This document shows, piece by piece, positions 337-39,069 of a stretch of 43,437 bases of DNA. This DNA is from a virus. Taxonomy: Duplodnaviria > Heunggongvirae > Uroviricota > Caudoviricetes. The stretch is taken from the IMG/VR virus record IMGVR_UViG_2563366824_000005, positions 1 through 43,437 of that record; one strand, given 5' to 3'. Position 1 is the first letter of the stretch. The number at the start of each line of letters is the position of its first letter. Both the position numbers and the translations under genes were made by a program. Under the pieces are notes generated by a model that saw only the letters and a list, made by a program, of their open reading frames with translations, did not search any database and was not told the origin of the DNA.

Positions 337-1377
337 TTATTTAGACGCAAGCGCCGCATCAATTGCAGATAATCTTTGTCTTAATTCTGCGTTTTCTTCT
401 TCCAGTGCTGTTATTCTGTCGTCTGACTCTCTGGCTACCTGAACAAGCAAGCCAGTAACACCAGAATAATCTACTGTGTAATAACGTTCACCTTCTTCAC
501 CTTCCGATCCGCTCGCACCGTCCTGATATTTCATTACGGAACCTACAACTTCTGGGATTGCTTCCAGAGCTTCCTGTGCAATGACACCAGCATAGGGCAT
601 ACCGTTTTCTTTAAGCGTGTATGTATAGCCGTTCATTTTACGGATGCGGTCGGTTGCATTATCGATCACCTGAATGTTGTCTTTCAGATCCCGGTCGGAA
701 TGCTGGTTAAATGCGGTGGCATGACATGCACCATTAACGCTTAACATATAGGTGTTATCGGTATTTTTCTGCGCATAGAACATATAAGCGCCACCATCAA
801 CACCGACTTCATAAACAACAGGACGGCTGGAGTTGCCCCACAATTGAGCAGTAACACCAGCATAAGCGGTTCCCTGTGTGTTTAATGTCATGGTTGACCC
901 ATGATTGGCATATTTGATCTGTAATGTGTCGGTGTAATCAAATTTAATAAGCGCGTTACTTCCACGCTTGCTGTATGACATAAGGCAGTTACCCATTTTG
1001 AGGTATCCGCTGTCACCGGGAAAAATCATCGTACCGCCATAAAGGTTGGTAAAGTCCCAGCAAATGTTTGTCCCGTTATCGTTCAGGTTAAGGCGCGCCA
1101 TTGCGTTACCTGGACTGTCTATCCATTTTTTGAGGTATAGTTCGCAATACGCATCCTCAACACCTGCCGTCCTGTGAGTTGAGCGGAGTTTTCTCCCAAA
1201 TATAGCTCCGCTAGTTGGTAATACCTGCTGATACCATGAAGCAGACCAGTCACCAACGATTTCATCTTTGCTGTCTACATATAATTTTGTTGCGTAGCTT
1301 CCTTGATCGTTTTTTAATTTGCTAACGTCGGATTTTAGCGTTTTGATGTCATCAGGAATTACTGTCGATGTAGCCAT
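337..1377 (-). CDS. tail fibre / receptor-binding protein with C-terminal intramolecular chaperone (peptidase S74-like) domain
   Basis: 346 aa; C-terminal segment HSDRDLKDNIQVID...GVIAQEALEAIPEVV plus coiled coil resembles auto-cleaving chaperone domains of endosialidase/T5-type fibres; recalled from memory. Confidence 0.55.
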   Translation of the reverse strand: MATSTVIPDDIKTLKSDVSKLKNDQGSYATKLYVDSKDEIVGDWSASWYQQVLPTSGAIFGRKLRSTHRTAGVEDAYCELYLKKWIDSPGNAMARLNLNDNGTNICWDFTNLYGGTMIFPGDSGYLKMGNCLMSYSKRGSNALIKFDYTDTLQIKYANHGSTMTLNTQGTAYAGVTAQLWGNSSRPVVYEVGVDGGAYMFYAQKNTDNTYMLSVNGACHATAFNQHSDRDLKDNIQVIDNATDRIRKMNGYTYTLKENGMPYAGVIAQEALEAIPEVVGSVMKYQDGASGSEGEEGERYYTVDYSGVTGLLVQVARESDDRITALEEENAELRQRLSAIDAALASK

Positions 1378-1386
1378 TTTTCTTCC

Positions 1387-1668
1387 TCACATCCAGCCAC
1401 GAAGTTGATGCTCAACAGCAACCACGTATTCATCGAATAATGACGATATTTGCGAATCATTAATGATGCGCACGTTTACAAAATATCCGTCTTCCTTAAC
1501 ACATACCGGTTCGCCATCTTCAGTTAGTTCTCCGGTTTCTTTGTACACGTTACCTATCACGTCAATAAGAATATCATCCTGCATCGACTCGTCATCATAA
1601 TAGCCAGTACTCTCCATAAAGGCCGAAAAGTCGGCCCTGTCGGCAAATTTGAGTGTTAAATCTTTCAT
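1387..1668 (-). CDS. hypothetical protein, possibly tail-fibre accessory/assembly protein
   Basis: 93 aa acidic protein; ATG overlaps stf stop (TAATG), suggesting translational coupling; no recognised family. Confidence 0.4.
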   Translation of the reverse strand: MKDLTLKFADRADFSAFMESTGYYDDESMQDDILIDVIGNVYKETGELTEDGEPVCVKEDGYFVNVRIINDSQISSLFDEYVVAVEHQLRGWM

Positions 1669-4040: not shown

Positions 4041-4098
4041 ATTCACTCCACAAATAAAAAAGGCGCCATTTCTGGCGCCCGTATTTGGGTTATAAAAC

Positions 4099-8875: not shown

Positions 8876-9574
8876 TTACTGCGAAAGTTTGTTAATGGAA
8901 AGGAAGCCGCCAAAGTTGCCGACGTTATTGCGGAACTTACAGCCACTCAGGCATTTGCTGCATTTATCCTTCGTGATATCGGACGTTGTCTGGTCATATT
9001 CATCCGCGACCGCCGGACCGTGATAACCGCACTCATCGCCGCGATAGGTCCAGGTGCAGGTGTTGGCCAGCATGATACGTCCCGGAAAAACAGCGCCATC
9101 TGTTTCCGTCGGCGTGGACAGTACAAAAGAGGCACTCACCGCGCTCAGTTCGCTGCACTGCTCGATGCGCCAGCGGCTGATCACCTCCTGCTCCGGATCG
9201 GCGTCACTGTTTCCGTTAACGAAGTTCACCGCATCCAGAAAACGGGCGTAAACCTTACGCCGGACCACCGTTCCGCCGACCAGACTCTGCAGATCTTCCG
9301 CCATCCCGGTGACCATACCGTACAGGTTAGAAACCGTCAGCGTGGGGCGCGTACTGGTGCCTTTGCCATTCAGTTCAAAACCGCTCCCCTGAATGGGATA
9401 CGGCTGATACTGTCGCCCCTGCCAGGTGACCGGCTCACCTTTTTCGTTCAGCTCATTACAGAAAAAATAACGTTCTCCACCGACCTCTGTCAGGTCGATT
9501 TCCCAGAGCACCACGCTGGCCGACTGCTCCGCACGGGTGCATTCATTCAGTGTTTCCTGCCGGATATCCTGCAT
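8876..9574 (-). CDS. L: minor tail protein L
   Basis: 232 aa, lambda L length and position, Cys-rich C-terminus. Confidence 0.85.
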   Translation of the reverse strand: MQDIRQETLNECTRAEQSASVVLWEIDLTEVGGERYFFCNELNEKGEPVTWQGRQYQPYPIQGSGFELNGKGTSTRPTLTVSNLYGMVTGMAEDLQSLVGGTVVRRKVYARFLDAVNFVNGNSDADPEQEVISRWRIEQCSELSAVSASFVLSTPTETDGAVFPGRIMLANTCTWTYRGDECGYHGPAVADEYDQTTSDITKDKCSKCLSGCKFRNNVGNFGGFLSINKLSQ

Positions 9575-9903
9575 CAGTTCACCACCTGTTCAAACTCTGC
9601 GCTGAACTCAACACGCAGCATACTGACCCGCGACGACCATTTTGCGCAGGTCACCTTTATCTGCCGCCACTCATAAGGCGGCGTCCACAGAAAGGCCTTC
9701 CAGCCCCCGTGCTCTTCCAGAAACGACTCCAGCGCCGTGGCCTCCCAACGGGGGACAGAAAGCGTCACGCTGTACGTTTTCAGGTTGGCATTCAGCCCGG
9801 CAGGCGCTCGCTGGGAATAGCCATCACCAAAGCGCACCTTTCTTACAGAAGGGGCCGAAGCCACATCCATACCGGGTTTCACTTTCCAGCGGAAGGTTTT
9901 CAT
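9574..9903 (-). CDS. M: minor tail protein M
   Basis: 109 aa, lambda M length and position. Confidence 0.85.
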   Translation of the reverse strand: MKTFRWKVKPGMDVASAPSVRKVRFGDGYSQRAPAGLNANLKTYSVTLSVPRWEATALESFLEEHGGWKAFLWTPPYEWRQIKVTCAKWSSRVSMLRVEFSAEFEQVVN

Positions 9904-12461
9904 CGTCCACCTCCGGAGAACAGGCCACCATCACGCATCTGTGTCTGAATTTCATCACGGGCACCCTTGCGGGCCATGTCATACACTGCCTTCATCATCT
10001 GTGGACCTGGCAGACCATTCGTACCGTCGTTCTGAATCACCACGTGATTGTTCTGATTAAAATTAATGCCTTCAGCCCGCCGCATCTGCGCCGGACTTCC
10101 GGCACCGCCCACATAACCACCTTCCGCATAGCCCCGCATCAGGCGGTACAGGTTGCCGACACCAATCCGGCTGGTTGCCTCCTTCGTGAAGACAAATTCA
10201 CCACGGTGAACAATCCCCGCTGGCTCATATTTGCCGCCGGTTCCCGTAAATCCCCCGGTCGCAAAATGGAATTTCGCCGCAGCGGCCTGAATGGCTGTAC
10301 CGCCTGACGCGGATGCTCCACCACTGGCAGCACCGCCAATGGCGCTGCCGATACTCCCGACAATCCCCACCATTGCCTGCTTAAGCAGAATTTCTGTCAT
10401 CATGGACAGCACGGAACGGGTGAAGCTGCGCCAGTTCTGCTCACTGCCGGTCAGCATCGCCGCCATATTCTGTGCAATACCATCAAAGGTCTGCGTGGCT
10501 GCACTTTTAACCTGCGACATACTGTCCGTGGCGCTCTCTTCCCACTCACTCCAGCCGGACTTCAGGCCTGCCATCCAGCTCCCGCGAAGCTGGTCTTCAG
10601 CCGCCCAGGTCTTTTTCTGCTCTGACATGACGTTATTCAGCGCCAGCGGATTATCGCCATACTGTTCCTTCAGGCGCTGTTCCGTGGCTTCCCGTTCTGC
10701 CTGCCGGTCAGTCAGCCCCCGGCTTTTCGCATCAATGGCGGCCCGTTTTGCCCGTTGCTGCTGTGCGAATTTATCCGCCTGCTGCGCCAGCGCGTTCAGG
10801 CGCTCCTGATACGTAACCTTGTCGCCAAGTGCAGCCAGCTGGCGTTTGTACTCCAGCGTCTCATCTTTATGCGCCAGCAGGGATTTCTCCTGTGCAGACA
10901 GCTGGCGACGTTGCGCCGCCTCCTCCAGTACCGCGAACTGACTCTCCGCCTTCCACAAATCCCGGCGCTGCTGGCTGATTTTCTCATTCGCTCCGGCATG
11001 CTTCTCCAGCGTCCGGAGTTCTGCCTGAAGCGTCAGCAGGGCAGCATGAGCACTGTCTTCCTGACGATCGCCCGCAGACACCTTCACGCCGGACTGTTTC
11101 GGCTTTTTCAGCGTCGCTTCATAATCCTTTTTCGCCGCCGCCATCAGCGTGTTGTAATCCGCCTGCAGGATTTTCCCGTCTTTCAGTGCCTTGTTCAGTT
11201 CTTCCTGACGGGCGGTATATTTCTCCAGCGGCGTCTGCAGCCGTTCGTAAGCCTTCTGCGCCTCTTCGGTATATTTCAGCCGTGACGCTTCGGTATCGCT
11301 CTGCTGCTGCGCATTTTTGTCCTGTTGAGTCTGCTGCTCAGCCTGCTTTCGGGCGGCTTCAAGCGCAAGACGGGCCTTTTCACGATCATCCCAGTAACGC
11401 GCCCGCGCTTCATCGTTAACAAAATAATCATCCTTGCGCAGATTCCAGATGTCGTCTGCTTTCTTAAACGCAGCCTCTGCCTTAATCAGCATCTCCTGCG
11501 CGGTATCAGGACGACCAATATCCAGCACCGCATCCCACATGGATTTGAATGCCCGCGCTGTCCTGTCTGCCCAGGTCTCCAGCGTGCCCATGTTCTCTTT
11601 CAGGCGGCGGGTCTGGTCATCAAACCCTTTCGTTGCGGCTTCGTTCGCCGCCTGCAATGCCCCGGCTTCATCGCCGGAACGCTGCAACTGAGCAACATAC
11701 GCAATCTGCTCCGCCGTCACGTTATGGAACTGGCGCGCCATCGCCGTCAGCCCCGACGTCGGGTCAGTGGTCAGCTTCCCGAAGGCTTCAGCGACCTTGT
11801 CCACCTCCACGCCGGATGCAGAAGAGAAACGCGCCACACTCTGGCTGATGGACGCAATCTGAGCCTCACCGCTTACCCCCGCCTTAACCAGTGCACTGAG
11901 TGACTCGCTGGTCTGGTTAAACGTCAGCCCTGCCGCCTGCCCGGCTCTGGACAGGACCAGCATACGATCTGCCGTCAGACCCGACTGATTACCGGAAAGG
12001 ACCAGCGTTTTGTTGAAATCGGACAGGGTTGAGTTACCCTGATACCAGGCATACGCCAGCGCACCGGTCGCCACCGCCAGCGAGGTGGCCCCGACCATCG
12101 GCAGGGTGATCGCACCGGCAAGCCCCCGGAACATGGGGATCATCCCGCCGAAGGAGTCCTTAACCTGACCACCCTGTTGCAGCAGGATCAGCCACGGGCT
12201 TTGCCCGCCTGCAAGCTGCGTGGCCACGTCGGTGAACTGTGCAGGCAGCATACGCATGGCGGCTTTATACTGCCCGACGGAAATCCCCGCTTTCTGTGCA
12301 GCCAGTGCCTGTCGGCTCAGCGACTGTTCAACGACTGCCGCTGTTTTTTTCGCATCACTTTCCGTACCGGAAAAATGACGCCTGACTCTGGCCATCTGCT
12401 CGTCAAATCTGGCCGCATCCAGACTTAAATCAACGACCAGATCGCCTACCGGTTCAGCCAT
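9900..12461 (-). CDS. H: tail tape measure protein H
   Basis: 853 aa, N-terminus MAEPVGDLVVDLSLDAARFDEQMARVRRHF as in lambda H. Confidence 0.9.
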   Translation of the reverse strand: MAEPVGDLVVDLSLDAARFDEQMARVRRHFSGTESDAKKTAAVVEQSLSRQALAAQKAGISVGQYKAAMRMLPAQFTDVATQLAGGQSPWLILLQQGGQVKDSFGGMIPMFRGLAGAITLPMVGATSLAVATGALAYAWYQGNSTLSDFNKTLVLSGNQSGLTADRMLVLSRAGQAAGLTFNQTSESLSALVKAGVSGEAQIASISQSVARFSSASGVEVDKVAEAFGKLTTDPTSGLTAMARQFHNVTAEQIAYVAQLQRSGDEAGALQAANEAATKGFDDQTRRLKENMGTLETWADRTARAFKSMWDAVLDIGRPDTAQEMLIKAEAAFKKADDIWNLRKDDYFVNDEARARYWDDREKARLALEAARKQAEQQTQQDKNAQQQSDTEASRLKYTEEAQKAYERLQTPLEKYTARQEELNKALKDGKILQADYNTLMAAAKKDYEATLKKPKQSGVKVSAGDRQEDSAHAALLTLQAELRTLEKHAGANEKISQQRRDLWKAESQFAVLEEAAQRRQLSAQEKSLLAHKDETLEYKRQLAALGDKVTYQERLNALAQQADKFAQQQRAKRAAIDAKSRGLTDRQAEREATEQRLKEQYGDNPLALNNVMSEQKKTWAAEDQLRGSWMAGLKSGWSEWEESATDSMSQVKSAATQTFDGIAQNMAAMLTGSEQNWRSFTRSVLSMMTEILLKQAMVGIVGSIGSAIGGAASGGASASGGTAIQAAAAKFHFATGGFTGTGGKYEPAGIVHRGEFVFTKEATSRIGVGNLYRLMRGYAEGGYVGGAGSPAQMRRAEGINFNQNNHVVIQNDGTNGLPGPQMMKAVYDMARKGARDEIQTQMRDGGLFSGGGR

Positions 12462-12499
12462 ACCGGACTCCTCCTGCGATCCCTTCTGATACTGTCATC

Positions 12500-14131
<1,632 letters not shown>

Positions 14132-14150
<19 letters not shown>

Positions 14151-14554
14151 TTTCCCGCAGAAACAGGCTCTGCAGGCCCGGCGTCCTCTGCCTGTTCAGG
14201 GGCATTATTCACCACAAACTCAGACATTCCGGACAGACGTAACACCACGTTTTCAGCCTGAGCAATTGCCTCCGTGGGCCAGGTGGTAAGCACTTCCTGC
14301 TCAATCTGCGTAATGGCTTCATTCATGGACGGCAGCTTTGTCTTCTGCGGATGGTTATGCCACAGAGACATCGCCACCAGAAACGCCCCGCCTCTGATAA
14401 GATCCTCTACAGACACCTGCAGGTTGCCACTGGATTCAGCCTTTTTTTCCTGCTCTTTCAACCAGGCAAGATGCTCAATACGCTGCAGGGCTGACAGTTC
14501 AGAAAGCGTGACGGTCACACCGTTATGTTCAAATGATTCGGTTTTCAGGAACAT
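14132..14554 (-). CDS. G: tail assembly chaperone G
   Basis: 140 aa, lambda G length; ends ...PVSAGKCSTVS. Confidence 0.85.
14150..14156 (-). other. programmed -1 ribosomal frameshift slippery site for G-T fusion (GGGAAAG)
   Basis: heptamer GGGAAAG on minus strand near end of G, with T frame open from 14150. Confidence 0.6.
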
Positions 14555-14569
14555 CGCTGACTCTCCGGA

Positions 14570-15310
14570 TTAACTGGCGGTGACGGTAATTTCTGCAACC
14601 GCAGCAAACTCACCATTACCGGATACAACCGGAATGTTGACCTTGCCTGCAGCAACGCCGTTCACGGTGATGGTCATACCACTGACCGACACGGTGGCTT
14701 TTGTTTTATCCGCTGACACCGCACGGAAGCTCTTGTCGGTTGCGCCTTCCGGCTGGAATGCCACGGTCAGCGTGGTGCTCTTCCCTTTCACTACGGAAGC
14801 GCTGGCTGGCGTCACGGTCATACCGGTTGCCGCTGTTACCGTGCTGCGATCTTCTGCCATCGACGGACGTCCTACGTTGGTGACTTTCACCGTGCGGGTG
14901 ATCACGTCCTTCGCCGTCACCGCCTTACCGATACTGCTGACCCAGCCGCGGAACACATCGACCGTGCCGTTCGGGAAGCGGATTTTATAGGCACGGGTAT
15001 CACCTTCATTAAACCACGCCAGCAGCGCCTGCTGCCCCTGCTCTCCGGGCATCCACGCCAGCGTGAAGCTGGTATCTCCGGCAGATTTCTGCCCCTGTCC
15101 GGTCGCGGTCCAGTCCGCATCTTCATCATCGAGATAACTGTCGTCATAGGACTCAGCGGTCAGTTCGCCGGGCGTCAGGTCTTTAACTTTAGCCAGACGC
15201 GACCAGTCAACGTCTGAAAGCGGGTTCGCATAAGGGTCGCCGCTCCCGTTATAAACCCACAGGGTGGTTCCGGCACCTTTCACCGGTATTGCTGGATTTG
15301 GTACAGGCAT
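14570..15310 (-). CDS. V: major tail tube protein V
   Basis: 246 aa from [16 protein letters not shown]..., lambda V-like including C-terminal Ig-like region. Confidence 0.9.
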
Positions 15311-15317
15311 ATCGTCC

Positions 15318-15713
15318 TCACATTTCATAGGTAATGACATAAGTCAGATCGGCTGAACTCCACAGGCCCGCATCATCGTCGCGCCGGTAGTCATAGCCAC
15401 TGGCCACCATACTGGTGATCAAATCTGACAGTGCCGGGATATCGCTCATCACCGGATAAATCCGGGACTCCATCCACGCATCCAGCTCTGAATCCGGCAC
15501 CTGAGCAGGCAGGAAAACTTCGATATGCAGCTCCGCCTGCCAGGTATCGCTGTCCAGCTCTTCGCCCGTGTATTCAGCGCCGGTGAGATAAACGGCAACT
15601 GCCGGAAAATCCGCCTCATCAAAAACAGCGGGGCGACCATCAAAAAACGTCGCCCCGGTGTCATGCTTCTCCAGTGCATCCAGTACGGCTGCACGGAGTT
15701 CAGTATGTTTCAT
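15318..15713 (-). CDS. U: tail terminator protein U
   Basis: 131 aa, lambda U length and position. Confidence 0.85.
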
Positions 15714-16288
15714 CGCTTTATTACCATCCTCAGTTGATGCTGCAGCGCATAGCCCAGCTCTTTCGGAAGACGCTCACGCCGTATCCGTTCAATATTCTGT
15801 TTAAACGCCGTGGTCAGTGGCACCGCCATCGGGATTTTCACCACATCAATGGGGTAACGGTTTTTCCCGGCCACACGCTGCATAACATGCCACCGGCCAT
15901 TTTTCAGTTGCTGAATAAACGCGCCGGGAATACGACGGTTTCCCACCACAAGCACGCTGCCGCCACCTTTCAGGGATGAACGCTGCCCCTTTTTACGACG
16001 CCTGCGTCGGGACAGGACAACCCGCGCATTACCCAGCCTGATTACGGGCAAATCCCCCCGGTTAACCCTGATTCTGGCCTGCGGATTTTTAACCGTGGCC
16101 CTTTTCAGCCTGGCCCTTTCCTTTACCAGTTTCCGGCGTACCTTTGTCTCACGGGCAACCTGTGACGCCGACTGCGATATCGCGGATGAAGCAACGCGGT
16201 TAATGGCCATTGCGGCGGCACCAGGCACCGCCGTTTTGCTGATACGGCTGAGGTTTTCAACGGCCTGCTCAAGACCTTTTATGGCCAT
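15710..16288 (-). CDS. Z: tail completion protein Z
   Basis: 192 aa, lambda Z-like (MAIKGLEQAVENLSRI...). Confidence 0.85.
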   Translation of the reverse strand: MAIKGLEQAVENLSRISKTAVPGAAAMAINRVASSAISQSASQVARETKVRRKLVKERARLKRATVKNPQARIRVNRGDLPVIRLGNARVVLSRRRRRKKGQRSSLKGGGSVLVVGNRRIPGAFIQQLKNGRWHVMQRVAGKNRYPIDVVKIPMAVPLTTAFKQNIERIRRERLPKELGYALQHQLRMVIKR

Positions 16289-16299
16289 ACATCCCCCTT

Positions 16300-16653
16300 T
16301 CAGCGGCGACGGTTAACGGCAGGCGGTACGCCCCGCCCAAGCCAGAGATGACAGCTTCCGCCATCATCCGGCGAAACACGATCTATCCAGAAGTTTTCCT
16401 CACCGATGGTCAGCGTGTCTCCACGCCGCAGCTGCCGCACATCATCAGTCCGGACAAACAGGGACGGGCTGGAGCCTTCAACGCGTACGCCCTGTCCGGC
16501 ATAGCTGATATTTTCAGGGTCATCAAAAACACCACGTATCACAGCGCCGGACTGCTCACCGGATGTCATGGTGGCTGACGTTCCCATGTACCCGCGTATC
16601 GTTTCATCGGCGCGGGCAATGGCAGCATCGAACAGGTTATCGAAATCAGCCAC
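16300..16653 (-). CDS. FII: head-tail joining protein FII
   Basis: 117 aa, lambda FII length and position. Confidence 0.85.
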   Translation of the reverse strand: MADFDNLFDAAIARADETIRGYMGTSATMTSGEQSGAVIRGVFDDPENISYAGQGVRVEGSSPSLFVRTDDVRQLRRGDTLTIGEENFWIDRVSPDDGGSCHLWLGRGVPPAVNRRR

Positions 16654-16664
16654 AGCGCCTCCCG

Positions 16665-17060
16665 TTATTGCATTCTGGCCAGGCCACGTTCTGTCATTTC
16701 GGCTGCCACACCGACAGAGACACGAAACGCCGTTCCCGGCAGCACAAATGCCACAGGTTCATCCCGCGTGGCGTGAAGTGCATCAGTATGCAGCGTCACC
16801 AGTGCCACGACCGTGACCAGAGCAGCCGTATCAATCATGGTATCCGGCTGCTCTGATACCACCTCATTTTCATGTCCGGTCAGCGCATTTTCCGGTCTGA
16901 GAGGGGTATCCTGACCGGCAGCGTCATCCGTGTCATCAAGCTCCTCTTCCAGCTCTGCCACACGGAGCGCCAGTTCTTCTTTCGTCCCCGTCAGGCTGAC
17001 ATCACGGTTCAGTTGCTCACCCAGCGACCGGAGACGGACAATCAGTTCATCTTTCGTCAT
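16665..17060 (-). CDS. FI: DNA packaging protein FI
   Basis: starts MTKDELIVRLRSLGEQLN as lambda FI; track ORF has a 13-aa upstream extension. Confidence 0.8.
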   Translation of the reverse strand: MTKDELIVRLRSLGEQLNRDVSLTGTKEELALRVAELEEELDDTDDAAGQDTPLRPENALTGHENEVVSEQPDTMIDTAALVTVVALVTLHTDALHATRDEPVAFVLPGTAFRVSVGVAAEMTERGLARMQ

Positions 17061-17101
17061 GGACTCCTCCACAGAGAGAAAATGGCCCCGAAGGGCCACG
17101 A

Positions 17102-18127
17102 TTACGCCAGTTGTACGGACACGAACTCATCAGGGTCAGCCAGCAGCATCAGCGGTGCTGACTGAATCATGGTGAACTCACGTGCCGGATCGCCGGTGGT
17201 CACCCAGTTTTTCGGGTAACGGGCAGAGGAGTTAATGCCTTCGCGCTGTGCGTCCGCATCCTGAATGCAGCCATAGGTGCGCAGACCGCGTGCCTGAGTG
17301 TTCCCCAGCACCATCGTGTTGTCCGGCAGGAAGTTCTTTTTGACGCCGTTTTCCACGTACTGTCCGGAATACACGACGATGGCCACATCGCCATACATCC
17401 CCTTGTAGGACACCGCTTTGCCCAGGTCTTTCACCGCTGTCTCCAGCTCGGAATGAGAGCCGCGACGAGTATCCAGCTTCTCCCTGACGGCTTTGAAGGA
17501 ACGGAACAGCGCCCAGCCTTTCGGATCAAACACGATGATATTCACCACTCCGCTGGCGTTCAGCGCGTAGGCTTCGATATCGTCGGTCGGGTCATACGTG
17601 GACTTGTCACGCTTGCTCCACTCCGTGCCGCCGGACTGCGTGATGTTATTCGCCTCACTGCGGCCCATATCCACCTCAACCGGATCGAAGGCTTCACCGG
17701 TCATGGTGTATTTGCCCTTAAGCACGGCAGAAACTGCCTGCATCTCTTCGACCTGGGCAATGGCCAGCTCTTCGTCACGCATGTTCTGCATAATGATGCG
17801 ACGGCGGCGGTAAGCCGGGTCCGCCAGATTCTGCGGATCTTCATCCGGCAGGCGACGCAGGGTCATCTGCGGATTCACCTCATGCTTCGGCTTGACATAT
17901 CCCGGCGTAAATTCAGAGGTGGAGCCGCCACGGGAGCGGATAACCTCACCGGAAACAATCGGCGAAACGTACAGCGCCATGTTTACCAGCCCCGGAATTT
18001 GTGAGAGATAGACTTTCTCCGTGGTGAAGGGATAGCTCTCACGGAAAAAGAGACGCAGAAACAGCGGATCAAACTTAAATTTCTGCTCATTTGCCGCCAG
18101 CAGCTGGGCGGTTGTGTACATCGACAT
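17102..18127 (-). CDS. E: major capsid protein E
   Basis: 341 aa from MSMYTTAQLLAANEQKF..., lambda E. Confidence 0.9.
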   Translation of the reverse strand: MSMYTTAQLLAANEQKFKFDPLFLRLFFRESYPFTTEKVYLSQIPGLVNMALYVSPIVSGEVIRSRGGSTSEFTPGYVKPKHEVNPQMTLRRLPDEDPQNLADPAYRRRRIIMQNMRDEELAIAQVEEMQAVSAVLKGKYTMTGEAFDPVEVDMGRSEANNITQSGGTEWSKRDKSTYDPTDDIEAYALNASGVVNIIVFDPKGWALFRSFKAVREKLDTRRGSHSELETAVKDLGKAVSYKGMYGDVAIVVYSGQYVENGVKKNFLPDNTMVLGNTQARGLRTYGCIQDADAQREGINSSARYPKNWVTTGDPAREFTMIQSAPLMLLADPDEFVSVQLA

Positions 18128-18182
18128 AAAAAAATCCCGTAAAAAAAGCCGCACAGGCGGCCTTTAGTGATGAAGGGTAAGG

Positions 18183-18515
18183 TTAAACGATGCTGATTGC
18201 CGTTCCGGCAAACGCGGTCCGTTTTTTCGTCTCGTCGCTGGCAGCCTCCGGCCAGAGCACATCCTCATAACGGAACGTGCCGGACTTGTAGAACGTCAGC
18301 GTGGTGCTGGTCTGGTCAGCAGCAACAGCAAGAATGCCGACAGCAGCACCGTCGGTGGTGCCATCCCACGCAACCAGCTTACGGGTGGAGGTGTCCAGCA
18401 TCAGCGGGGTCATTGCAGGCGCTTTCGCACTCAATCCGCCTGGCGCGGTTGCGGTATGAGCCGGGTCACTGTTGCCCAGCGGCTGGTAATGGGTAAAGGT
18501 TTCTTTGCTCGTCAT
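18183..18515 (-). CDS. D: capsid decoration protein D
   Basis: 110 aa from [12 protein letters not shown]..., lambda D. Confidence 0.9.
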
Positions 18516-18524
18516 AAACATCCC

Positions 18525-19824
18525 TTACACTGGTGTGTTCAGCAAATCGTTAACGGCATCAGATGCCGGGTTACCTGCCGCCAGCGGTGTCGGTGCCCCC
18601 TGCATCAGACGATCCAGCGCAGTGTCACTGCGCGCCTGTGCACTCTGTGGTGCTGCGGCCAGAATGCGGCGGGCCGTTTCCACGGTCATACCGGGGGTTT
18701 CTGCCAGCACGCGGGCCTGTTCTTCGCGTCCGTGAGCCTCCTCACAATTGAGGATCCCCATAATGCGGCTGTTTTCTGCCGCAACCGCTGCGGTGATCTG
18801 TGCGTTCACGTCCGGCTGCGCCGCGCTGGCGTTCTCGCCCTCTGTCGCTGACACCACGTCAGTAACGTCAGCCTGCAAAGCAGTGGCTGAAACAGTTGTT
18901 GATTGAGTCTCTTTGGTCATTCGCCCTCCTGAGAGACGGGATTTACGTGCATCCAGTGCCTCACGCATAACGGTGATCGCATCGGTGCTGTTGACAAGTT
19001 CATCAGCCAGTCCGGCATCAATGGCCTCCTGACCGCTGTACACTGCAGCCTCGGTATCCAGCACAGCCTGCACGGACAGGCCGGTATATGCCGACACCTT
19101 CTGCGCAAACATCCGGCGGGTTGCATCCATCCGGGACTGCAGTGTCTCCCGGACGTCATCCGGAAGATGGCTGTAGGGGTTGCCATCCACCTTATGGCTG
19201 CCGCTGTAAATCAGCGTGATTTCCACGCCCTGTTTCTCCAGCGCAGCACCGTAATTACTGTGAGCCATCATGACGCCGATGGAGCCTGTCCGAGCGGTCT
19301 GCGTGACCAGACGCCGGGAGGCGGCACTGGCAAGCAACTGACCTGCACTGCAGTTCATGTCGTTGGCAAGCGCCCATACCGGTTTTATGTCACGCACACG
19401 GGCGATGATGTCAGCGCAGTCAAATGCCCCCGCCACCATCCCGCCGGGCGTGTCCATATCGAGCAGAATGCCGTCCACCATCGGATCGCTGGCAGCCTGT
19501 TGCAGACGGGCGATAATGCCGTTGTAACCGGTCATCCCCGAGTACGGCTGCAGCGCCCGCGTCCGGCTGACCAGCGTGCCGGACACCGGCAGCACGGCGA
19601 TGCCGTTCATGACCTGATAACTGCGGGCCTGTCGTGGTCCGTCATCATCACCGGATAATGCCAGCGTCGCGAGTGCCTCCTGGGCAGTCAGGCTGTCGCC
19701 GGACACCGCATCCGTCAGGCGGCTGATCCCAAACTGGCCTGCAAGCGCACAAAAGAAAACCCGCGCATAGGCGGGTTCAAGCATCAGCGGCTCATTAAAG
19801 GCCATACTGGCAATATGCGGGAGA

Positions 19825-19844
<20 letters not shown>
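18525..19844 (-). CDS. C: capsid assembly protease C (scaffold Nu3 nested in same frame)
   Basis: lambda C-like from VTAELRNLPHIASMAFNEPL...; probable GTG start at 19844; track ORF is extended upstream. Confidence 0.8.
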
Positions 19845-23525
<3,681 letters not shown>

Positions 23526-26867: not shown

Positions 26868-27140
26868 ATGGACAATAGCACCATTTCTCTACAGGAGTTG
26901 CTCGACTGCATTTCCAGGCTTCGGGATGATGTAAATGCCCTCACTGTTGCATTTTCACATCTGGCCTTATCAATTCCCAGGGAGCAAATGCTGCCAACGC
27001 TGGCATCCATTCATTTTGAATCACGCAACCCCAAATGGTCCCAGGAACAACAAAATTCTTTCAAGTGGCTGGCGGCATTGCTGGAAGAAAATTATGCTGG
27101 CAAAACTACCATTTCGGCGGAGTCTTCAGGGAACCAGTAA
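26868..27140 (+). CDS. hypothetical protein on the strand opposite the lysis genes, convergent with the ydfR-like gene
   Basis: 90 aa ORF; AAGAGGA SD about 7 nt upstream of ATG; 3' end overlaps ydfR-like gene by 35 bp; no recognised family. Confidence 0.4.
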   Translation: MDNSTISLQELLDCISRLRDDVNALTVAFSHLALSIPREQMLPTLASIHFESRNPKWSQEQQNSFKWLAALLEENYAGKTTISAESSGNQ

Positions 27141-27450
27141 TCCTTCCCGGTAGCTTTCCTTTGTAGGTTATCCATACATTCTGCGCCTCTAAAATTACGG
27201 GGCGCTTTTCCGGCGACTGCTCATCCCCTTCACATAACCCGGCAGCGACATCCAGGAAGACCTGTCTGATGCTCCTTCTGGCCGCTGCCTCATAAAACTC
27301 CAGCGCAGCACCTTCAACACGGTCCAGCGAGATGTCCAGGTCAAAAATTTCACCGTCAAAGCGTTCTTTGTCCTGTAATGCTAAAGTTACCGTAACTTTA
27401 TTCTCAAAATTGCGGATCCCTTTCACAATCAGTTCATAGTTTTGAGTCAT
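27106..27450 (-). CDS. YdfR-like protein (DUF1327) between holin and endolysin
   Basis: 114 aa MTQNYELIVKGIRNFENKVTV...; same position as ydfR in K-12 Qin; GGGGAGAG SD. Confidence 0.6.
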   Translation of the reverse strand: MTQNYELIVKGIRNFENKVTVTLALQDKERFDGEIFDLDISLDRVEGAALEFYEAAARRSIRQVFLDVAAGLCEGDEQSPEKRPVILEAQNVWITYKGKLPGRITGSLKTPPKW

Positions 27451-27454
27451 TGAA

Positions 27455-27670
27455 TTACTCTCCCCGTGCCGCCTTACGACGGTCCTCTCTGATTTTGAAA
27501 TACAGGTTAGTCAGATATGTCAGCAGCCCAAACAGCAGACTCCCCAGCACGCCTATTGCCGCCCACTGAGACGGGGAAACCCTGTCCAGCAACTGCAGGA
27601 ACCAGTAGCCCGTTCCCACCGCTGACGTGGTGTATGACACACCTGTTGTGATTTTTTCCATCTGGTCCAT
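27455..27670 (-). CDS. class II pinholin (phage 21 S-type) with dual-start motif
   Basis: 71 aa [10 protein letters not shown]...[40 protein letters not shown], close to P21 S21 as recalled; Met1 and Met4 give the antiholin/holin pair; track ORF extended upstream. Confidence 0.8.
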
Positions 27671-27977
27671 ACCCCGTCTCCCGTTATCCGGAAGCTGAAA
27701 ACAATAAAAAAGCCACCAGTTAACTACTGATGGCTCTGATAACTCATGCAAGCGTCTCAGACGACCCACTGACACTACCGGTGAGTTTAACGATACCTTC
27801 CATTTGACTGGCTCACTTTTTATGATGATGCCGGTGCATTTATCTCCAGCGCCAGACTTTCTATCTCAACGCCATACGTTACATTTTTGGTAATATCCAT
27901 CAGCGTCAGTGCATTTAGTCCCACTGCCAGACTGTCTTTTATGGCCTGGAATGCCGGGCCAGTACGATGACGTAGTA

Positions 27978-28166
27978 TCACTCCGGCTCAGTTGCACCAC
28001 TGACCACCACATCACCTTCTGCTGCAATCGCCTGCATCAGGGTATAAGGGGTTATGGCCACCGGACTACCAAACGGCTGCCCGCCCTCTTTCAGTTTATG
28101 TGTCAGCTTTTCCGCAAGATCTGACGGCGGCGCCGCCCTGACAACATCATAGTGTTTAAATGCCAT
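27978..28166 (-). CDS. hypothetical small protein (62 aa)
   Basis: start at MAFKHYDV... with GGAAAG SD; divergent from ORF 28427-28762 across an AT-rich spacer; no recognised family. Confidence 0.4.
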   Translation of the reverse strand: MAFKHYDVVRAAPPSDLAEKLTHKLKEGGQPFGSPVAITPYTLMQAIAAEGDVVVSGATEPE

Positions 28167-28426
28167 GGTTCTTTCCACTATCTGAAAAATAATTCTTTAA
28201 AATACCGGATATGTAATACAGAAAAAACACAAAACCATACCTTAAATAAAAACCTGATTATCAAGCAGATATGCATGGATAAACTACAAGACGAGATATA
28301 AACCACCCTGCATTTAAATAAACAATAAACAACATCAGAAAAATAATTCTGCGCTATGGTTTACATTCAAAAATATCATTTATACTTTTCAGAACATCAC
28401 CAGCAAGGCATAAACAAGGAAGCTAA

Positions 28427-28762
28427 ATGAAGTGGATTGTGATTGATACAGTTATCCAGCCATCATGCGGAATATCTTTTTCAGTCATATGGAGTAAAGT
28501 AAAATTAATAATCTGGTATCAATCGGATGCTTTCTTACCTCCTGAAAGTATATTTACACTGACTCACACAGGTATCATGCTCAATAACAAAGTGCTACCT
28601 GTAACCATTTACAACGTAGTACCATTCAATAAAACATTCTGGAATTTAATCAAAAACAGCCAGGAATGCCCTACAAATACAGATAACGTATTGAATGAAT
28701 GCTTTAATAACCGTTGCACTCTGCAAATATGTCCTTATGGACTAAAACAACAAAGTCCATAA
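28427..28762 (+). CDS. hypothetical Cys-rich protein (111 aa) in AT-rich moron
   Basis: AAGGAAG SD before ATG; AT-rich codon usage unlike flanking phage genes; followed by hairpin at 28797-28818. Confidence 0.45.
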
Positions 28763-28796
28763 GGAGTTTACTCACATCTGACAAAATCAATATAAA

Positions 28797-28818
28797 CAGC
28801 CCCTCCGGAGAGGGGCTG
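28797..28818. terminator. strong 9-bp GC hairpin (CAGCCCCTC-CGGA-GAGGGGCTG)
   Basis: perfect inverted repeat; U-rich tract on the minus-strand side only. Confidence 0.45.
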
Positions 28819-29209
28819 GAGAGTGGCGCTATGTGCCATTGCATGGTGCCGGGTGCCTCCCGGTGAATTCAGTACCAGCACCTGAATCCGCGATTATCCC
28901 ATATACCTACTCGCTGATTGCCCCTCCGCACAGGGGGATTCACCATGCCAGTTTCTTTTAACAAACTCCCCGCAAACCAGACAACAGTCAACCGCCTGAA
29001 TTGTGAAGTATTTAAAAATTTCTCCCGCTAACTGATACCCGGCTAACAGTCTGGCGTTTTCTTTTTCAGCAACGGGAAAGCAACAACCACCACACCCGCC
29101 ACCAGCACACCGTCAGCCAGCACTGACATTATCCGGCTGCTGCAATGCCATTCACAAAAACAGTAAGCAATCACTTTTTACCGTAACAGGTGATAATCCA
29201 GATATGTAT

Positions 29210-29536
29210 CTACCCCAGATGAGTAATCCGAAGTTCATCCATACCACAGGTCCTGGCTATTCTGTTGTACTCCTGAACAAGAGCAAATAATTCTGAATTA
29301 GCAACCATGAACTCATCGCAAACCCTCTGTATAGCATCACTATTCAGAAGAATAACGTCTCTTCCCGAAAGACGATCAGGAGTACAGAACAAAACTGTCA
29401 AACGGCTGAAGGCCTTTGCTCGTGCTGCATTGACTATATCAATACGCTGCCTAAGGATGAAACACCCCGACGCCTCATCAATATTCACTCTACCCACACC
29501 ATATGAATGATAAATATTTAATACTGAAAAAACCAT
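29210..29536 (-). CDS. hypothetical protein (108 aa from first ATG)
   Basis: track ORF begins at TTG 29563; first ATG at 29536; weak SD; moderately AT-rich. Confidence 0.3.
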   Translation of the reverse strand: MVFSVLNIYHSYGVGRVNIDEASGCFILRQRIDIVNAARAKAFSRLTVLFCTPDRLSGRDVILLNSDAIQRVCDEFMVANSELFALVQEYNRIARTCGMDELRITHLG

Positions 29537-29673
29537 TAGACCGTATAACAAACACTCAATCAATACTTAACAGAACTTTTATTTTTGACAAACATATAAT
29601 ATTTTCAACAATATCCTGAGCCAGGTATATTCCAGTATAAGGCTCTGCCGGAAGGAATCTGGAAGAATGAATA

Positions 29674-29750
29674 TGGCGCGCTGTACTGGATTCGAACCAG
29701 TGACCGATTGCTTAGAAGGCAATTGCTCTGTCCGGCTGAGCTAACAACGC
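29674..29750 (-). tRNA. tRNA-Arg (anticodon UCU)
   Basis: 77-nt cloverleaf GCGTTGTTAGCTCAGCCGGACAGAGCAATTGCCTTCTAAGCAATCGGTCACTGGTTCGAATCCAGTACAGCGCGCCA with encoded CCA. Confidence 0.85.
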
Positions 29751-29784
29751 TGAATACCGATAATGGACCGCCATCGGGGACCCG

Positions 29785-29795
29785 CCCCCCCCCCC
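29785..29795. repeat. homopolymeric C11 (G11 on minus strand) tract between the two tRNA genes
   Basis: cccgccccccccccccgcacc at 29781-29800. Confidence 0.9.
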
Positions 29796-29856
29796 GCACC
29801 AACACCCCTGTTATCGTGTCGTCTGCTCTTCCTGATAAGCTAATGGCGGTTTGTGA

Positions 29857-29932
29857 TGGTGGCCCTTGCTGGATTTGAACCAGCGACCTGGCGATTATGA
29901 GTCGCTCGCTCTCACCACTGAGCTAAAGGACC
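29857..29932 (-). tRNA. tRNA-Ile2 (anticodon CAU, ileX/ileZ-like; would be called tRNA-Met by anticodon alone)
   Basis: 76-nt cloverleaf GGTCCTTTAGCTCAGTGGTGAGAGCGAGCGACTCATAATCGCCAGGTCGCTGGTTCAAATCCAGCAAGGGCCACCA, resembles E. coli ileX. Confidence 0.8.
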
Positions 29933-29971
29933 GGGAGCAGAATAATAACGGTCCGTAATTAATTCCGCAAT

Positions 29972-29995
29972 AAAAAACCCGCTCGGCGGCGGGTT
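29972..29995 (-). terminator. tR-prime-like intrinsic terminator of the short late-promoter transcript
   Basis: minus strand AACCCGCCGCCGAGCGGGTTTTTTATT about 45 nt downstream of the putative start site. Confidence 0.7.
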
Positions 29996-30042
29996 GTAGA
30001 AACTCTTCTAACGTCAGGCATAAAACGCCCATCGTTATGACG

Positions 30043-30070
30043 AATTTACCACAGATTCCGGAAAAATCAA
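30043..30070 (-). promoter_or_regulatory. putative late promoter (pR-prime-like) with qut region, just downstream of Q
   Basis: minus strand TTGATT - 16 nt - TGgTAAATT (extended -10), resembling lambda pR-prime TTGACT/TAAATT. Confidence 0.5.
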
Positions 30071-30075
30071 CCTTG

Positions 30076-30897
30076 TTACCTAGTTACCTTTTTTAACTGC
30101 CGCTCAGCCCATGCTTCTTCAATATCAAACCGGGTCACCAGCGCATCATAGAATTTCTTAACTGTTTTTTCCCATGACGCGCGTGTTATCTGGTTTGTCA
30201 CCTCGCATATAGCATTAAATGCCTCCGTTGATGGTAGCCTTTCATAGCCACGACCACCACAACGCTGGCAGTCTCTGATAACAGGCATACCACGTTTTAC
30301 CGACTCTTCACGATGAATGGCGACACCACGCCCACGGCAATCCTTACAGGCGGTGGAAACCTCACCCTTCCCGCCACACTCCGGACAGGCAACTTTTACC
30401 ACCTCCCTGACTTTTTTCCATTCTTCCCAGTAAGACGGATACACACCTTTCGTACACTTTGCCCATACCGGCGGCTTACCATCCGGATACTGGACCTTGT
30501 TTGTAAAAACTACGCTTTCAATAAATTTTTCCCCATAGCAACAAGGGCACAGCTTTTTACTCGCTGCGCTGCGGGCATAATCCTCAAAAGCGCACGAAGC
30601 CATAATGCGCATCACTACCGGTTTTATTTCTGCCGGAAGTTTTCTCAACGCCGCCACACGATCGCACCGACTGAGTGCATAATCTGCCAGTAATTCTGTT
30701 GCCCGCGCCCTGTCATTCATACTAATGCCCATCTTCCCCAGGAACGCAGAAAACCCCATCTCAGCCCGATTCTGTGTCATGCCCTGCGCGGCCATCACAT
30801 CAGTGATACTCAGCGCATCTTTTGACGTTGAGGCCGATGCATCGGTCAGGCAAGGGGATTTTGGGGAGTAGTATTTCGGTAAATCTTCCAGTTTCAT
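30076..30897 (-). CDS. late-gene antiterminator Q-like protein (Qin QuuQ-type)
   Basis: 273 aa with paired CxxC motifs; positioned between rusA and the late promoter/tRNAs. Confidence 0.75.
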   Translation of the reverse strand: MKLEDLPKYYSPKSPCLTDASASTSKDALSITDVMAAQGMTQNRAEMGFSAFLGKMGISMNDRARATELLADYALSRCDRVAALRKLPAEIKPVVMRIMASCAFEDYARSAASKKLCPCCYGEKFIESVVFTNKVQYPDGKPPVWAKCTKGVYPSYWEEWKKVREVVKVACPECGGKGEVSTACKDCRGRGVAIHREESVKRGMPVIRDCQRCGGRGYERLPSTEAFNAICEVTNQITRASWEKTVKKFYDALVTRFDIEEAWAERQLKKVTR

Positions 30898-33068: not shown

Positions 33069-33224
33069 TTACTCCTCAGGTTCGTAAACTGTGAAGACAG
33101 CGACCTCCGTCTGGCCGGTTCGGATTCGTACCTCGCAGAGGTCTTTCCTCGTTACCAGTGCCGTCACTATGACGGTTAAACAGATGACGATCAGGGCGAT
33201 TAACATCGCCTTTTGCTGCTTCAT
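33069..33224 (-). CDS. hokD: Hok-family type I toxin (HokD/RelF-like)
   Basis: 51 aa MKQQKAMLIALIVICLTVIVTALVTRKDLCEVRIRTGQTEVAVFTAYEPEE; AAGGAG SD; below track length cut-off. Confidence 0.85.
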   Translation of the reverse strand: MKQQKAMLIALIVICLTVIVTALVTRKDLCEVRIRTGQTEVAVFTVYEPEE

Positions 33225-33481
33225 AGCCTGCTTCTCCTTGACCTTTCGGTCCGTAAGAGGCTAATCTCTATGTGTCGCATAGATATGGCCTCAGATTAAT
33301 GTTAAACGTCTTGCAGGACGCGTAATGTTACCTGGGGCTTTTCTCTATCTGCCGTTGGTGTTCATGCCCGAGGCAGATAGCCTCAAGCACCCGCAGTCAT
33401 TCTACTTAACTAAGATTTCCCCGCAAACCGTTTTTGTCCAGCACAATAAATATCCAACTAAACCAATGGAGTTCGCTGTAT

Positions 33482-39011: not shown

Positions 39012-39069
39012 TTTCTGGTGACGTTTGGCGGTATCAGTTTTACTCCGTGACTGCTCTGCCGCCCTTTTT
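39012..39069 (+). ncRNA. dicF: DicF small regulatory RNA with its terminator
   Basis: TTTCTGGTGACGTTTGGCGGTATCAGTTTTACTCCGTGACTGCTCTGCCGCCC followed by TTTTT matches K-12 DicF as recalled. Confidence 0.8.

Follow-up and report, generated by a model that had tools for sequence, protein, structure and literature searches.

The window, by which we mean the whole stretch of viral DNA analysed (43,437 nucleotides), carries a block of accessory genes at 27978–29563, between the antiterminator gene Q with its tRNAs and the holin gene. The block holds the gene for the anti-adaptor IraL, the small RNA STnc100, what is left of nanS-p, a gene for a sialate esterase, and a small conserved gene, here called orf92. 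A sequence-only reading had placed three open reading frames in it (27978–28166, minus; 28427–28762, plus; 29210–29536, minus) and described them as an unrecognised cluster at a moron site, with no assignable family. All three frames are present and the moron position was correctly recognised, with Q upstream, the holin downstream and stx2AB in the same slot of Stx2 phage 86. The lack of a family, however, fails for two of the three: the profile and structure searches that had been proposed assigned them to DUF1737 and to IraM/IraL, while the third matched PHROG 2873 without an informative fold match.

The features, in the direction of late transcription, are as follows.

30076–30897, minus: late antiterminator Q, 273 aa, bounding the slot upstream (Pfam Antiterm PF03589, E 6e-54; RefSeq 'antitermination protein')
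29976–29995, minus: tR'-like intrinsic terminator just 3' of Q, 7-bp stem and T run (terminator scan)
29857–29932, minus: tRNA with CAT anticodon, ileZ-type tRNA-Ile2 (ARAGORN; Rfam tRNA, 69 bits; RefSeq 'tRNA-Ile')
29764–29849, minus: degenerate argN, remnant of a tRNA-Arg(TCG) (alignment with CFT073)
29674–29750, minus: tRNA-Arg(TCT) (ARAGORN, Rfam)
29210–29488, minus: orf92, conserved small gene, PHROG 2873; GTG start favoured, alternatives ATG 29536 (108 aa) and TTG 29563 (117 aa)
29043–29174, minus: DUF3927 small hydrophobic protein, 43 aa (Pfam PF13064, E 2e-27; phrog_1470 'TciB-like'; RefSeq WP_000562553.1)
28788–28977, minus: STnc100 sRNA gene (Rfam RF02076)
28797–28818, minus: 9-bp GC hairpin, intrinsic terminator of STnc100 (terminal stem of the STnc100 model; terminator scan)
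28427–28762, plus: iraL, RssB anti-adaptor, 111 aa (110/111 to the CFT073 phi-potB CDS; NCBIfam; PDB 8twd)
28360–28426, plus: sigma-70 promoter and leader of iraL (TTTACA, 15-nt spacer, TATACT, hexamers read from the sequence; 33-nt leader; AAGGAA Shine-Dalgarno (SD) sequence)
27978–28166, minus: N-terminal nanS-p remnant, DUF1737 domain, 62 aa (Pfam, phrog_143, blastn, RefSeq)
27820–27981, minus: C-terminal nanS-p remnant, 53-aa ORF (phrog_143, tblastn, blastn)
27455–27670, minus: class II holin S, 71 aa, bounding the slot downstream (Pfam Phage_holin_2_1, E 4e-32; RefSeq 'class II holin')

Boundaries, RNA genes and esterase remnants

Along the minus strand, that of the late operon, the order is Q, tR'-like terminator, tRNA-Ile2, degenerate argN, tRNA-Arg(UCU), orf92, DUF3927, STnc100, nanS-p remnant and holin. 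A 620-bp insert with iraL on the opposite strand separates the STnc100 terminator from the nanS-p start; it is AT-rich, as had been noted for the surroundings of the 111-aa frame, with a GC content of 32–34% in 28200–28800 against ~50% around it. The genes iraL, orf92 and the nanS-p remnant differ in strand and origin and form no operon. The satellite insertion of strain MLI106K3, considered as a candidate, is absent from the window.

By its position, the tR'-like element may be the late-leader terminator that Q overrides. A sub-threshold Rfam match to Trp_leader at 29969–30075 (25.5 bits vs 41) was taken as a by-product of it. The two tRNAs previously reported beside the block were both recovered; the one with the CAT anticodon is called Met by ARAGORN and Ile by RefSeq in a 100%-identical strain. 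In the degenerate argN between them the middle has been replaced and now contains a run of 11 G. ARAGORN calls no tRNA there in the window, while the CFT073 counterpart is an intact tRNA-Arg(tcg). This degenerate third tRNA and the 43-aa DUF3927 gene were both absent from the list of the sequence-only reading. The proposal that the tRNAs supply rare codons is roughly consistent with codon usage, as ATA serves for 5 of the 12 Ile codons of iraL and AGA/AGG for 5 of the 10 Arg codons of orf92.

The STnc100 gene matches its Rfam model over positions 1–206 of 206 with 132.4 bits, above the gathering score of 47, and the STnc_100 qPCR primers published in PMC12370729 were matched to it by eye. The GC hairpin pointed out earlier is real (nine pairs, seven of them G-C), and on the alignment to the STnc100 model, in which the stem is followed by UUUAUAUUG, it is not free-standing but belongs to STnc100 as its terminator stem. 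The T-rich tail lies on the minus strand, as an intrinsic terminator of STnc100 requires. Neither the sequence nor the terminator scan shows a T run beside the hairpin on the plus strand, and a bidirectional terminator that would also serve iraL was rejected for this reason; the plus-strand scan revealed no canonical terminator of iraL's own.

The position of STnc100 in the late region, between cargo and nanS-p, is common to Stx2 phage 86 and to prophage locus L004. In Stx2 phages STnc100 lies 75 nt downstream of stx2B (PMC12370729), and the placement after stx2B was confirmed in Stx2 phage 86. The family is multi-copy; in EDL933 the copy STnc100_4 has been verified by Northern blot and other copies have RNA-seq reads (PMC5331693). 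By analogy with CFT073 or EDL933, STnc100 may be expressed here as a discrete stable RNA. Short frames with SD sequences had also been listed at 28945–29031; they exist, on the plus strand and antisense to STnc100, and the small plus-strand ORFs of 28833–29031 have no family match in Pfam, NCBIfam and PHROG searches.

The 62-aa ORF (read from ATG; 66 aa from GTG 28178) carries the N-terminal domain of NanS-p (Pfam DUF1737, PF08410, E 4e-14). It aligns to positions 1–58 of phrog_143 (634 aa), blastn equates 28167–28059 with codons 1–36 of the Stx2-86 esterase, and RefSeq has it as a pseudogene without C-terminus. The adjoining 53-aa ORF corresponds to phrog_143 positions 582–632, and tblastn relates it to the 3' end of the 'SASA family carbohydrate esterase' or 'yjhS 9-O-acetyl-N-acetylneuraminic acid deacetylase' of Stx phages. 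In blastn, 27962–27115 align with Stx2-86 3480–4328, while Stx2-86 1835–3479, and with it the central SASA catalytic domain, has no counterpart in the window. The first ~62 and the last ~47–50 nanS-p codons are retained and ~520 are lost. Because the SASA middle is absent, we do not count the product among the NanS-p enzymes; the sequence excludes an intact esterase, and what is present is a gene remnant.

The anti-adaptor gene iraL

The 111-aa frame, previously noted as Cys-rich, is oriented against the late operon and is identified by its sequence as IraL. It shares 110 of 111 residues with IraL of the CFT073 phi-potB prophage, V25I being the sole change, and scores 161.4 bits against the NCBIfam model of IraM (NF007393, cut-off 121) with residues 1–110 covered. 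A phmmer search finds IraM in PDB 8twd_A (E 8e-32), and the identity to K-12 IraM is 62% over 107 aa, four C-terminal cysteines included. The IraL branch has been defined by at least 95% identity to CFT073 iraL and ~59% to IraM; with 99% to CFT073 IraL and 62% to K-12 IraM, the protein of the window falls on this branch.

Mapping of the published 5'-RACE sequence (PMC4045071) sets the transcription start at 28394. Of its 32 bases, 30 match 28394–28425 (0 matches expected by chance), and the two leader bases that differ lie immediately 5' of the ATG. Promoter, start site and a prophage context 98% identical to phi-potB are those of iraL. A fur mutant of CFT073 has higher IraL (PMC7157518), and for this reason the region upstream of iraL was searched for a Fur box; direct Fur control was rejected, as the best candidate in 28168–28430 scored 11/19 and shuffled sequence was equally good.

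In CFT073, experiments have characterised IraL as an RssB anti-adaptor with a stabilising effect on RpoS (PMC4045071); it is also cited in PMC10844676 and PMC7157518. From this protein, one residue apart, we infer that the IraL of the window would bind RssB and stabilise RpoS (PMC4045071). Activity and promoter use are presumed here to follow the CFT073 or EDL933 data.

Positions 27400–29974 align to the CFT073 phi-potB prophage locus with 98.06% identity over 2576 columns, and the gene order is the same as that of CFT073 in the RefSeq annotation. We consider it very likely that the block is an iraL locus from a lambdoid prophage of the phi-potB type, the cargo slot of the late region being here a mosaic in partial decay. 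It is already known, as the published iraL lysogenic-conversion locus plus the STnc100 sRNA, and the claim of novelty fails. Homology to structural or housekeeping phage proteins, named beforehand as what would speak against that claim, does not quite describe the outcome: the genes are accessory, yet the block has both an annotation and a published description.

Among complete E. coli genomes (n = 5426) the whole 2.3-kb block was found in 858; a partial match to it occurs in 3338 E. coli genomes. The iraL segment (at least 80% query coverage) occurs in 1429 of the 5426, annotated as IraM every time, and is 95–99% conserved across more than 1400 genomes. A prophage-borne anti-adaptor would rewire host RpoS proteolysis in about one quarter of the complete E. 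coli genomes.

The small conserved gene orf92

The remaining frame had been read as a 108-aa ORF at 29210–29536. The ORF exists, but its start is more probably GTG 29488, which gives 92 aa. In close relatives the frame stays open further upstream, with similar sequence, which would allow an N-terminus of 108 or 117 aa. A homologue with 75% identity (63% for the protein), however, has a GGAG SD ahead of this GTG and lacks a start codon further upstream, and distant homologues (91–106 aa) begin at the core. We prefer the 92-aa form on these grounds.

As judged from its pattern of substitutions, orf92 is a real gene under purifying selection. It matches phrog_2873 with E 2e-69, and its 92-aa core is kept in homologues as low as 23–40% identity. 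A comparison over 92 codons without indel, at 67% nucleotide identity, gave a dN/dS of 0.27 in frame and of 1.2 and 0.8 out of frame; the differences per codon position are 24, 23 and 43, and both other frames contain stops. The SD here is GGGT, weaker than the GGAG of the homologue, and the gene is absent from the RefSeq annotation, never having been called by PGAP. For these two reasons its expression in this lineage may be poor or nil.

Searches for relatives of known function returned little. Pfam, NCBIfam and PADLOC gave no match to the gene product, and when 1.84 billion representatives were searched exhaustively with an HMMER profile, just 21 proteins came up, each of them small and without a name. 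AF2 predicts a two-helix hairpin (pLDDT 68), for which Foldseek against BFVD and PDB gave nothing at E ≤ 1e-3 and generic coiled-coil matches only.

Across four or more divergent prophage types, members of the family either come first behind Q and the tRNAs or directly follow an AraC-like gene, the usual neighbour, which is absent from the window. The two co-diverge (63% vs 57–63% identity), and the segment of orf92 with DUF3927 is present in ~1200 complete genomes. In the E. coli prophage loci L011–L013 an AraC-like–orf92–TerB–DUF3927 module lies between Q and the holin, with orf92 57–63% identical and DUF3927 homologous. The window differs from it by lacking both the upstream AraC-like (HTH_18) gene and the TerB-like gene that separates orf92 from DUF3927 there. 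In the literature we found no functional study of this module. We tentatively suggest, as a possibility, that orf92 encodes a functional late-region accessory protein overlooked by annotation, which might modulate or partner an AraC-like regulator of the EHEC-prophage kind or a TerB/DUF3927 membrane pair; the pairing with the AraC-like gene offers a concrete hypothesis that is cheap to test.

The same data bear on whether orf92, with DUF3927, is the cargo that matters in the late operon, as a small module with a regulatory role or an association with the membrane that is co-expressed with the lysis genes, iraL being incidental. Its constant position, the co-divergence with the AraC-like neighbour, the dN/dS value and its richness in AGA/AGG/ATA codons, which the adjacent tRNAs decode, are all consistent with this. 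It is nevertheless rather unlikely, as orf92 is homologous to nothing known, the partners that it usually has are missing here and a helical hairpin is a non-specific fold. The two explanations are compatible, and such a role for orf92 would not exclude that of the block as an iraL locus.

Alternative readings, mechanism and known systems

Erosion of the slot by deletions, with nothing left that is selected or functional in the host, would account for the ~520 lost nanS-p codons, the destroyed argN, the weakened SD of orf92 and the absence of the AraC-like and TerB-like partners that orf92 and DUF3927 have in relatives. We regard it as very unlikely, since iraL is intact together with its promoter, the gene being 95–99% conserved in more than 1400 genomes and functional in CFT073 (PMC4045071), STnc100 fits its covariance model end to end, and the orf92 frame is open in a family under purifying selection. 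The original proposal, a novel cluster of three proteins without a family that might serve, for instance, in toxicity, anti-phage defence or virulence, is hardly tenable and largely refuted by the present analysis. In its favour, the slot is home to stx and other morons and orf92 is without Pfam, NCBIfam or PADLOC match or informative structural neighbour. Against it, two of the three ORFs are identified (the published IraL and the DUF1737 nanS-p remnant), the hairpin is part of STnc100, annotation of the block exists, and the ORFs differ in strand and origin and form no operon. PADLOC models gave no match at E ≤ 0.01 to any of six proteins encoded in or beside the block, and on this blank a toxin or defence reading was rejected.

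For the block as an iraL locus, the following mechanism can be proposed. In the lysogen, iraL would be transcribed independently of Q from its own sigma-70 promoter; this has been shown in CFT073 and is expected here because the proteins are 99% identical and the start site is conserved. IraL would bind the N-terminal receiver domain of RssB and block the delivery of RpoS to ClpXP, so that RpoS would be raised in exponential phase as a lysogenic-conversion trait. STnc100 would be a separate stable sRNA with its 3' end at the hairpin. After induction, as lambdoid biology suggests, Q-modified polymerase would pass the tR'-like and STnc100 terminators, cross iraL in antisense and reach the lysis genes. 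The product of orf92 would be a real protein, small and helical, whose gene has lost here the AraC-like and TerB-like companions that it has in other prophages.

The closest known system is the iraL locus of CFT073 phi-potB (Hryckowian et al. 2014, mBio, PMC4045071), with 98% nucleotide identity from the tRNAs through the holin, the same transcription start sequence and the same order of tRNAs, DUF3927, STnc100 region, opposite-strand iraL, truncated DUF1737 and holin. It differs in that CFT073 has IS200C between Q and the tRNAs, which the window lacks, and an intact middle tRNA-Arg(TCG), of which the window has no intact copy. In a near-identical strain the prophage adjoins tRNA-Ser/mtfA, compared with potB in CFT073. 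K-12 IraM (b1160; RssB-IraM structure PDB 8twd, PMC10844676) is of the same family and, like IraL, blocks RssB, but its gene has a different context, beside e14. IraM is reportedly induced by Mg2+ starvation and in contact with both RssB domains, whereas IraL acts in log phase and contacts the N-terminal domain only (PMC4045071).

On sequence comparison, the slot between Q with its tRNAs and the holin is a variable cargo position, as had been suspected: among the prophages compared it is occupied by stx2AB, or by AraC-like, TerB-like or methyltransferase genes. Stx2 phage 86 (NC_008464) shares the backbone of cargo, STnc100, short antisense-oriented element, nanS-p, holin and ydfR, and its STnc100 and the two ends of its nanS-p are homologous to those of the window. 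Its order in the slot is stx2AB–STnc100–AsxR–nanS-p; stx2AB takes the place of orf92 and DUF3927, and nanS-p is intact (632 aa), in contrast to the remnant here. The locus shows the reuse of the stx slot in lambdoid prophages. Where the window has iraL, the Stx2 phage carries the AsxR sRNA on the opposite strand, and antisense cargo expressed in the lysogen seems to have landed repeatedly in the interval from the STnc100 terminator to nanS-p.

Contents of the slot between the tRNAs and the holin

The late region of the prophage is encoded on the minus strand. Its main features, with three further RNAs of the prophage, are as follows.

Features of the late region and further RNA genes
30897-30076, minus: Q antiterminator (Pfam Antiterm)
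29995-29976, minus: tR'-like terminator (terminator scan)
29932-29857, minus: tRNA with CAT anticodon (RefSeq label tRNA-Ile)
29750-29674, minus: tRNA-Arg(TCT) (ARAGORN)
29563/29536-29210, minus: third ORF of the cluster
29174-29043, minus: DUF3927 gene, 43 aa (Pfam, E 2e-27)
28818-28797, minus: hairpin with a 9-bp GC stem (sequence)
28427-28762, plus: 111-aa ORF within a 32-34% GC stretch
28166-27978, minus: 62-aa ORF
27981-27820, minus: 53-aa ORF, abutting the 62-aa ORF
Downstream end: class II holin, then YdfR/DUF1327 protein, lysozyme and Rz (Pfam, RefSeq)
13567-13689, minus: isrC RNA (Rfam, 150 bits)
33222-33392, minus: sok antitoxin RNA, next to hokD (Rfam, 101 bits)
39013-39064, plus: DicF RNA, next to dicB (Rfam, 77 bits)

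The sequence-only reading had described an unrecognised cargo cluster at a moron slot. All features it named were found where it had placed them, and the moron slot is right, but the block is already known, annotated and published content. Of 5426 complete E. coli genomes, 1429 have the 611-bp iraL segment at a coverage of at least 80%, 1183 have the orf92-DUF3927 segment, and 858 have the whole 2.3-kb block.

Between the Q stop codon and the strong tR'-like terminator lies a short leader (29969-30075, minus). In the lysogen its transcript would be short and end at this terminator, by analogy with late-leader RNAs known from other lambdoid phages; an Rfam Trp_leader match here was sub-threshold and is probably spurious. 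Opposite the lysis genes, a 90-aa ORF (26868-27140, plus), whose 3' end overlaps ydfR, has a full-length match to PHROG 2411 (E 6e-55); RefSeq labels it hypothetical protein.

iraL and a nanS-p remnant

The 111-aa protein, noted as Cys-rich, is IraL, a paralogue of IraM that was described from the uropathogenic strain CFT073, where its gene lies on the potB island (Hryckowian et al. 2014, PMC4045071). It matches the NCBIfam model NF007393, "anti-adapter protein IraM", with 161 bits (cut-off 121) and the crystallised IraM chain 8twd_A with E 8e-32, and the identical gene is labelled IraM by RefSeq in hundreds of genomes. With the gene of the CFT073 prophage phi-potB 110 of 111 residues are identical; identity to K-12 IraM is 62%, close to the published 58.9% between IraL and IraM (PMC4045071). 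Window 29974-27400 aligns to phi-potB with 98.06% identity over 2576 columns and in the same gene order.

The published 5'-RACE sequence of the iraL mRNA has a unique match at 28394-28425 (30 of 32 bases), which places the transcription start at 28394. TATACT and TTTACA are found upstream; the leader downstream is 33 nt long and contains the SD AAGGAA. IraL is higher in a CFT073 fur mutant (PMC7157518); a search of the promoter region for a Fur box gave none above chance. Residues 81-102 (28667-28762, plus) hold four cysteines of the C-terminal tail, spaced C-x10-C-x4-C-x4-C and common to K-12 IraM. The tail was cut off for the IraM crystal structure, and the structure paper is silent on cysteine or zinc; a metal or redox role of these cysteines is possible.

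The 62-aa ORF is a remnant of nanS-p, a 9-O-acetyl sialate esterase gene, with the catalytic domain deleted. It corresponds to a DUF1737 domain (Pfam, E 4e-14) and to positions 1-58 of the 634-residue PHROG 143 profile, while the adjoining 53-aa ORF covers positions 582-632 and matches the 3' ends of Stx-phage genes whose annotation reads SASA family carbohydrate esterase or yjhS 9-O-acetyl-N-acetylneuraminic acid deacetylase. The intact gene of Stx2 phage 86 encodes 632 aa; its first 36 codons correspond to window 28167-28059 and its last 47, together with the holin and ydfR, to window 27962-27115, whereas the ~1.6 kb between these ends have no counterpart in the window. RefSeq marks the 62-aa ORF as a pseudogene without C-terminus.

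STnc100 and orf92

The hairpin is part of the known small RNA STnc100. The Rfam model (RF02076) is covered completely at 28977-28788 (minus) with 132.4 bits (gathering score 47), and the 9-bp GC stem aligns with its terminal terminator stem, with a U-rich tail after it. Short ORFs with SDs, which had been pointed out at 28945-29031, are present, but lie on the plus strand opposite STnc100 and match no family. STnc100 is a multi-copy prophage sRNA that is regarded as a relative of PasD (Zhu, Shabalina and Storz 2026 preprint). EDL933 contains 11 copies, of which a Northern blot confirmed one (PMC5331693). In Stx2 phages a distance of 75 nt separates STnc100 from stx2B upstream of it (PMC12370729); in phage 86 we find it directly after stx2B with 208 bits. 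The slot of an O157-like prophage (L004) holds two copies, at 1344-1556 and 4650-4839, one downstream of a TolA-like gene and one downstream of orf92. This association with two different cargo genes suggests that STnc100 moves along with cargo cassettes as their 3' module.

The third ORF, orf92, matches no model of Pfam, NCBIfam or PADLOC and is left uncalled by PGAP in a near-identical strain and in CFT073; PHROG 2873 matches it end to end (E 2e-69). Among 5.8 billion proteins searched it has 23 relatives, the named sources all being E. coli or Shigella, and a profile run exhaustively against 1.84 billion representatives returned 21 members only. The relatives include a clade at 57-62% identity, to which the DNA of the 92-codon core is 67% identical without any indel. 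Differences by codon position number 24, 23 and 43, and dN/dS is 0.27 in frame and 1.2 and 0.8 out of frame; this pattern is good evidence that the ORF is translated. As distant members (23-40% identity, 91-106 aa) all start at the core, and a 75%-identical homologue (63% in protein) has GGAG before the GTG matching window 29488 and no start codon in the frame upstream, we prefer a 92-aa product from this GTG (29210-29488, minus) over the 108-aa form proposed from sequence alone. Its AlphaFold2 model is a two-helix hairpin of moderate confidence, for which Foldseek found nothing specific.

In the loci compared, the orf92 family always occupies the same slot. Two loci (L011 and L012) show the order Q, methyltransferase, AraC-like gene, orf92, TerB-like gene, DUF3927 and holin, two others (L013 and L004) the order AraC-like gene, orf92, STnc100 and nanS-p, and L010 shows Q, tRNA-Thr and the orf92 homologue. 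L004 also has an IS insertion upstream. The AraC-like neighbour, at 63% identity, and orf92 diverge in step; EHEC prophages carry the AraC-like regulators PsrA, PsrB and PatE (PMC10877973). Both the AraC-like and the TerB-like gene are missing from the window.

Apparent slot erosion and comparison with related prophages

The slot looks eroded outside iraL, STnc100 and orf92. In the ileZ-argN-argO trio the middle tRNA, argN, is degenerate (29764-29849, minus): its anticodon-arm region is swapped for unrelated sequence holding an 11-G homopolymer, and no tRNA is called here by ARAGORN or Rfam, whereas CFT073 has an intact tRNA-Arg(TCG) at this position. Codon usage is consistent with the remark that the adjacent tRNAs would supply rare codons, as a correlation only: these tRNAs read ATA and AGA/AGG, and iraL over-uses ATA (5 of its 12 Ile codons) and orf92 over-uses AGA/AGG (5 of its 10 Arg codons).

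A prophage of E. coli MLI106K3, otherwise ~99% identical to the window across the late region, carries a 10.9-kb satellite-like element (9516-20460 of that locus) inside its major capsid gene. The element encodes an integrase, a primase, an SSB and a small terminase, as well as major capsid and decoration proteins of its own. The junction has a 10-bp overlap that looks like an att core; the window capsid gene is uninterrupted, with the empty site at ~17883-17892.

At the sequence level, the iraL gene, promoter and context are conserved here, and STnc100 is intact including its terminator. Transferring what was shown elsewhere, iraL would be transcribed in the lysogen from its own sigma-70 promoter, and IraL would block RssB and thereby raise RpoS. 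After induction, going by lambdoid biology, Q-modified RNA polymerase would pass the tR'-like and STnc100 terminators and cross iraL in antisense to reach the lysis genes. The AsxR sRNA of Stx2 phage 86 lies directly after STnc100 on the opposite strand, in the place and orientation that iraL has in the window (1316-1575 of the phage locus compared with window 28427-28977), which suggests that the site after STnc100 is a recurrent insertion point for antisense, lysogen-expressed cargo.
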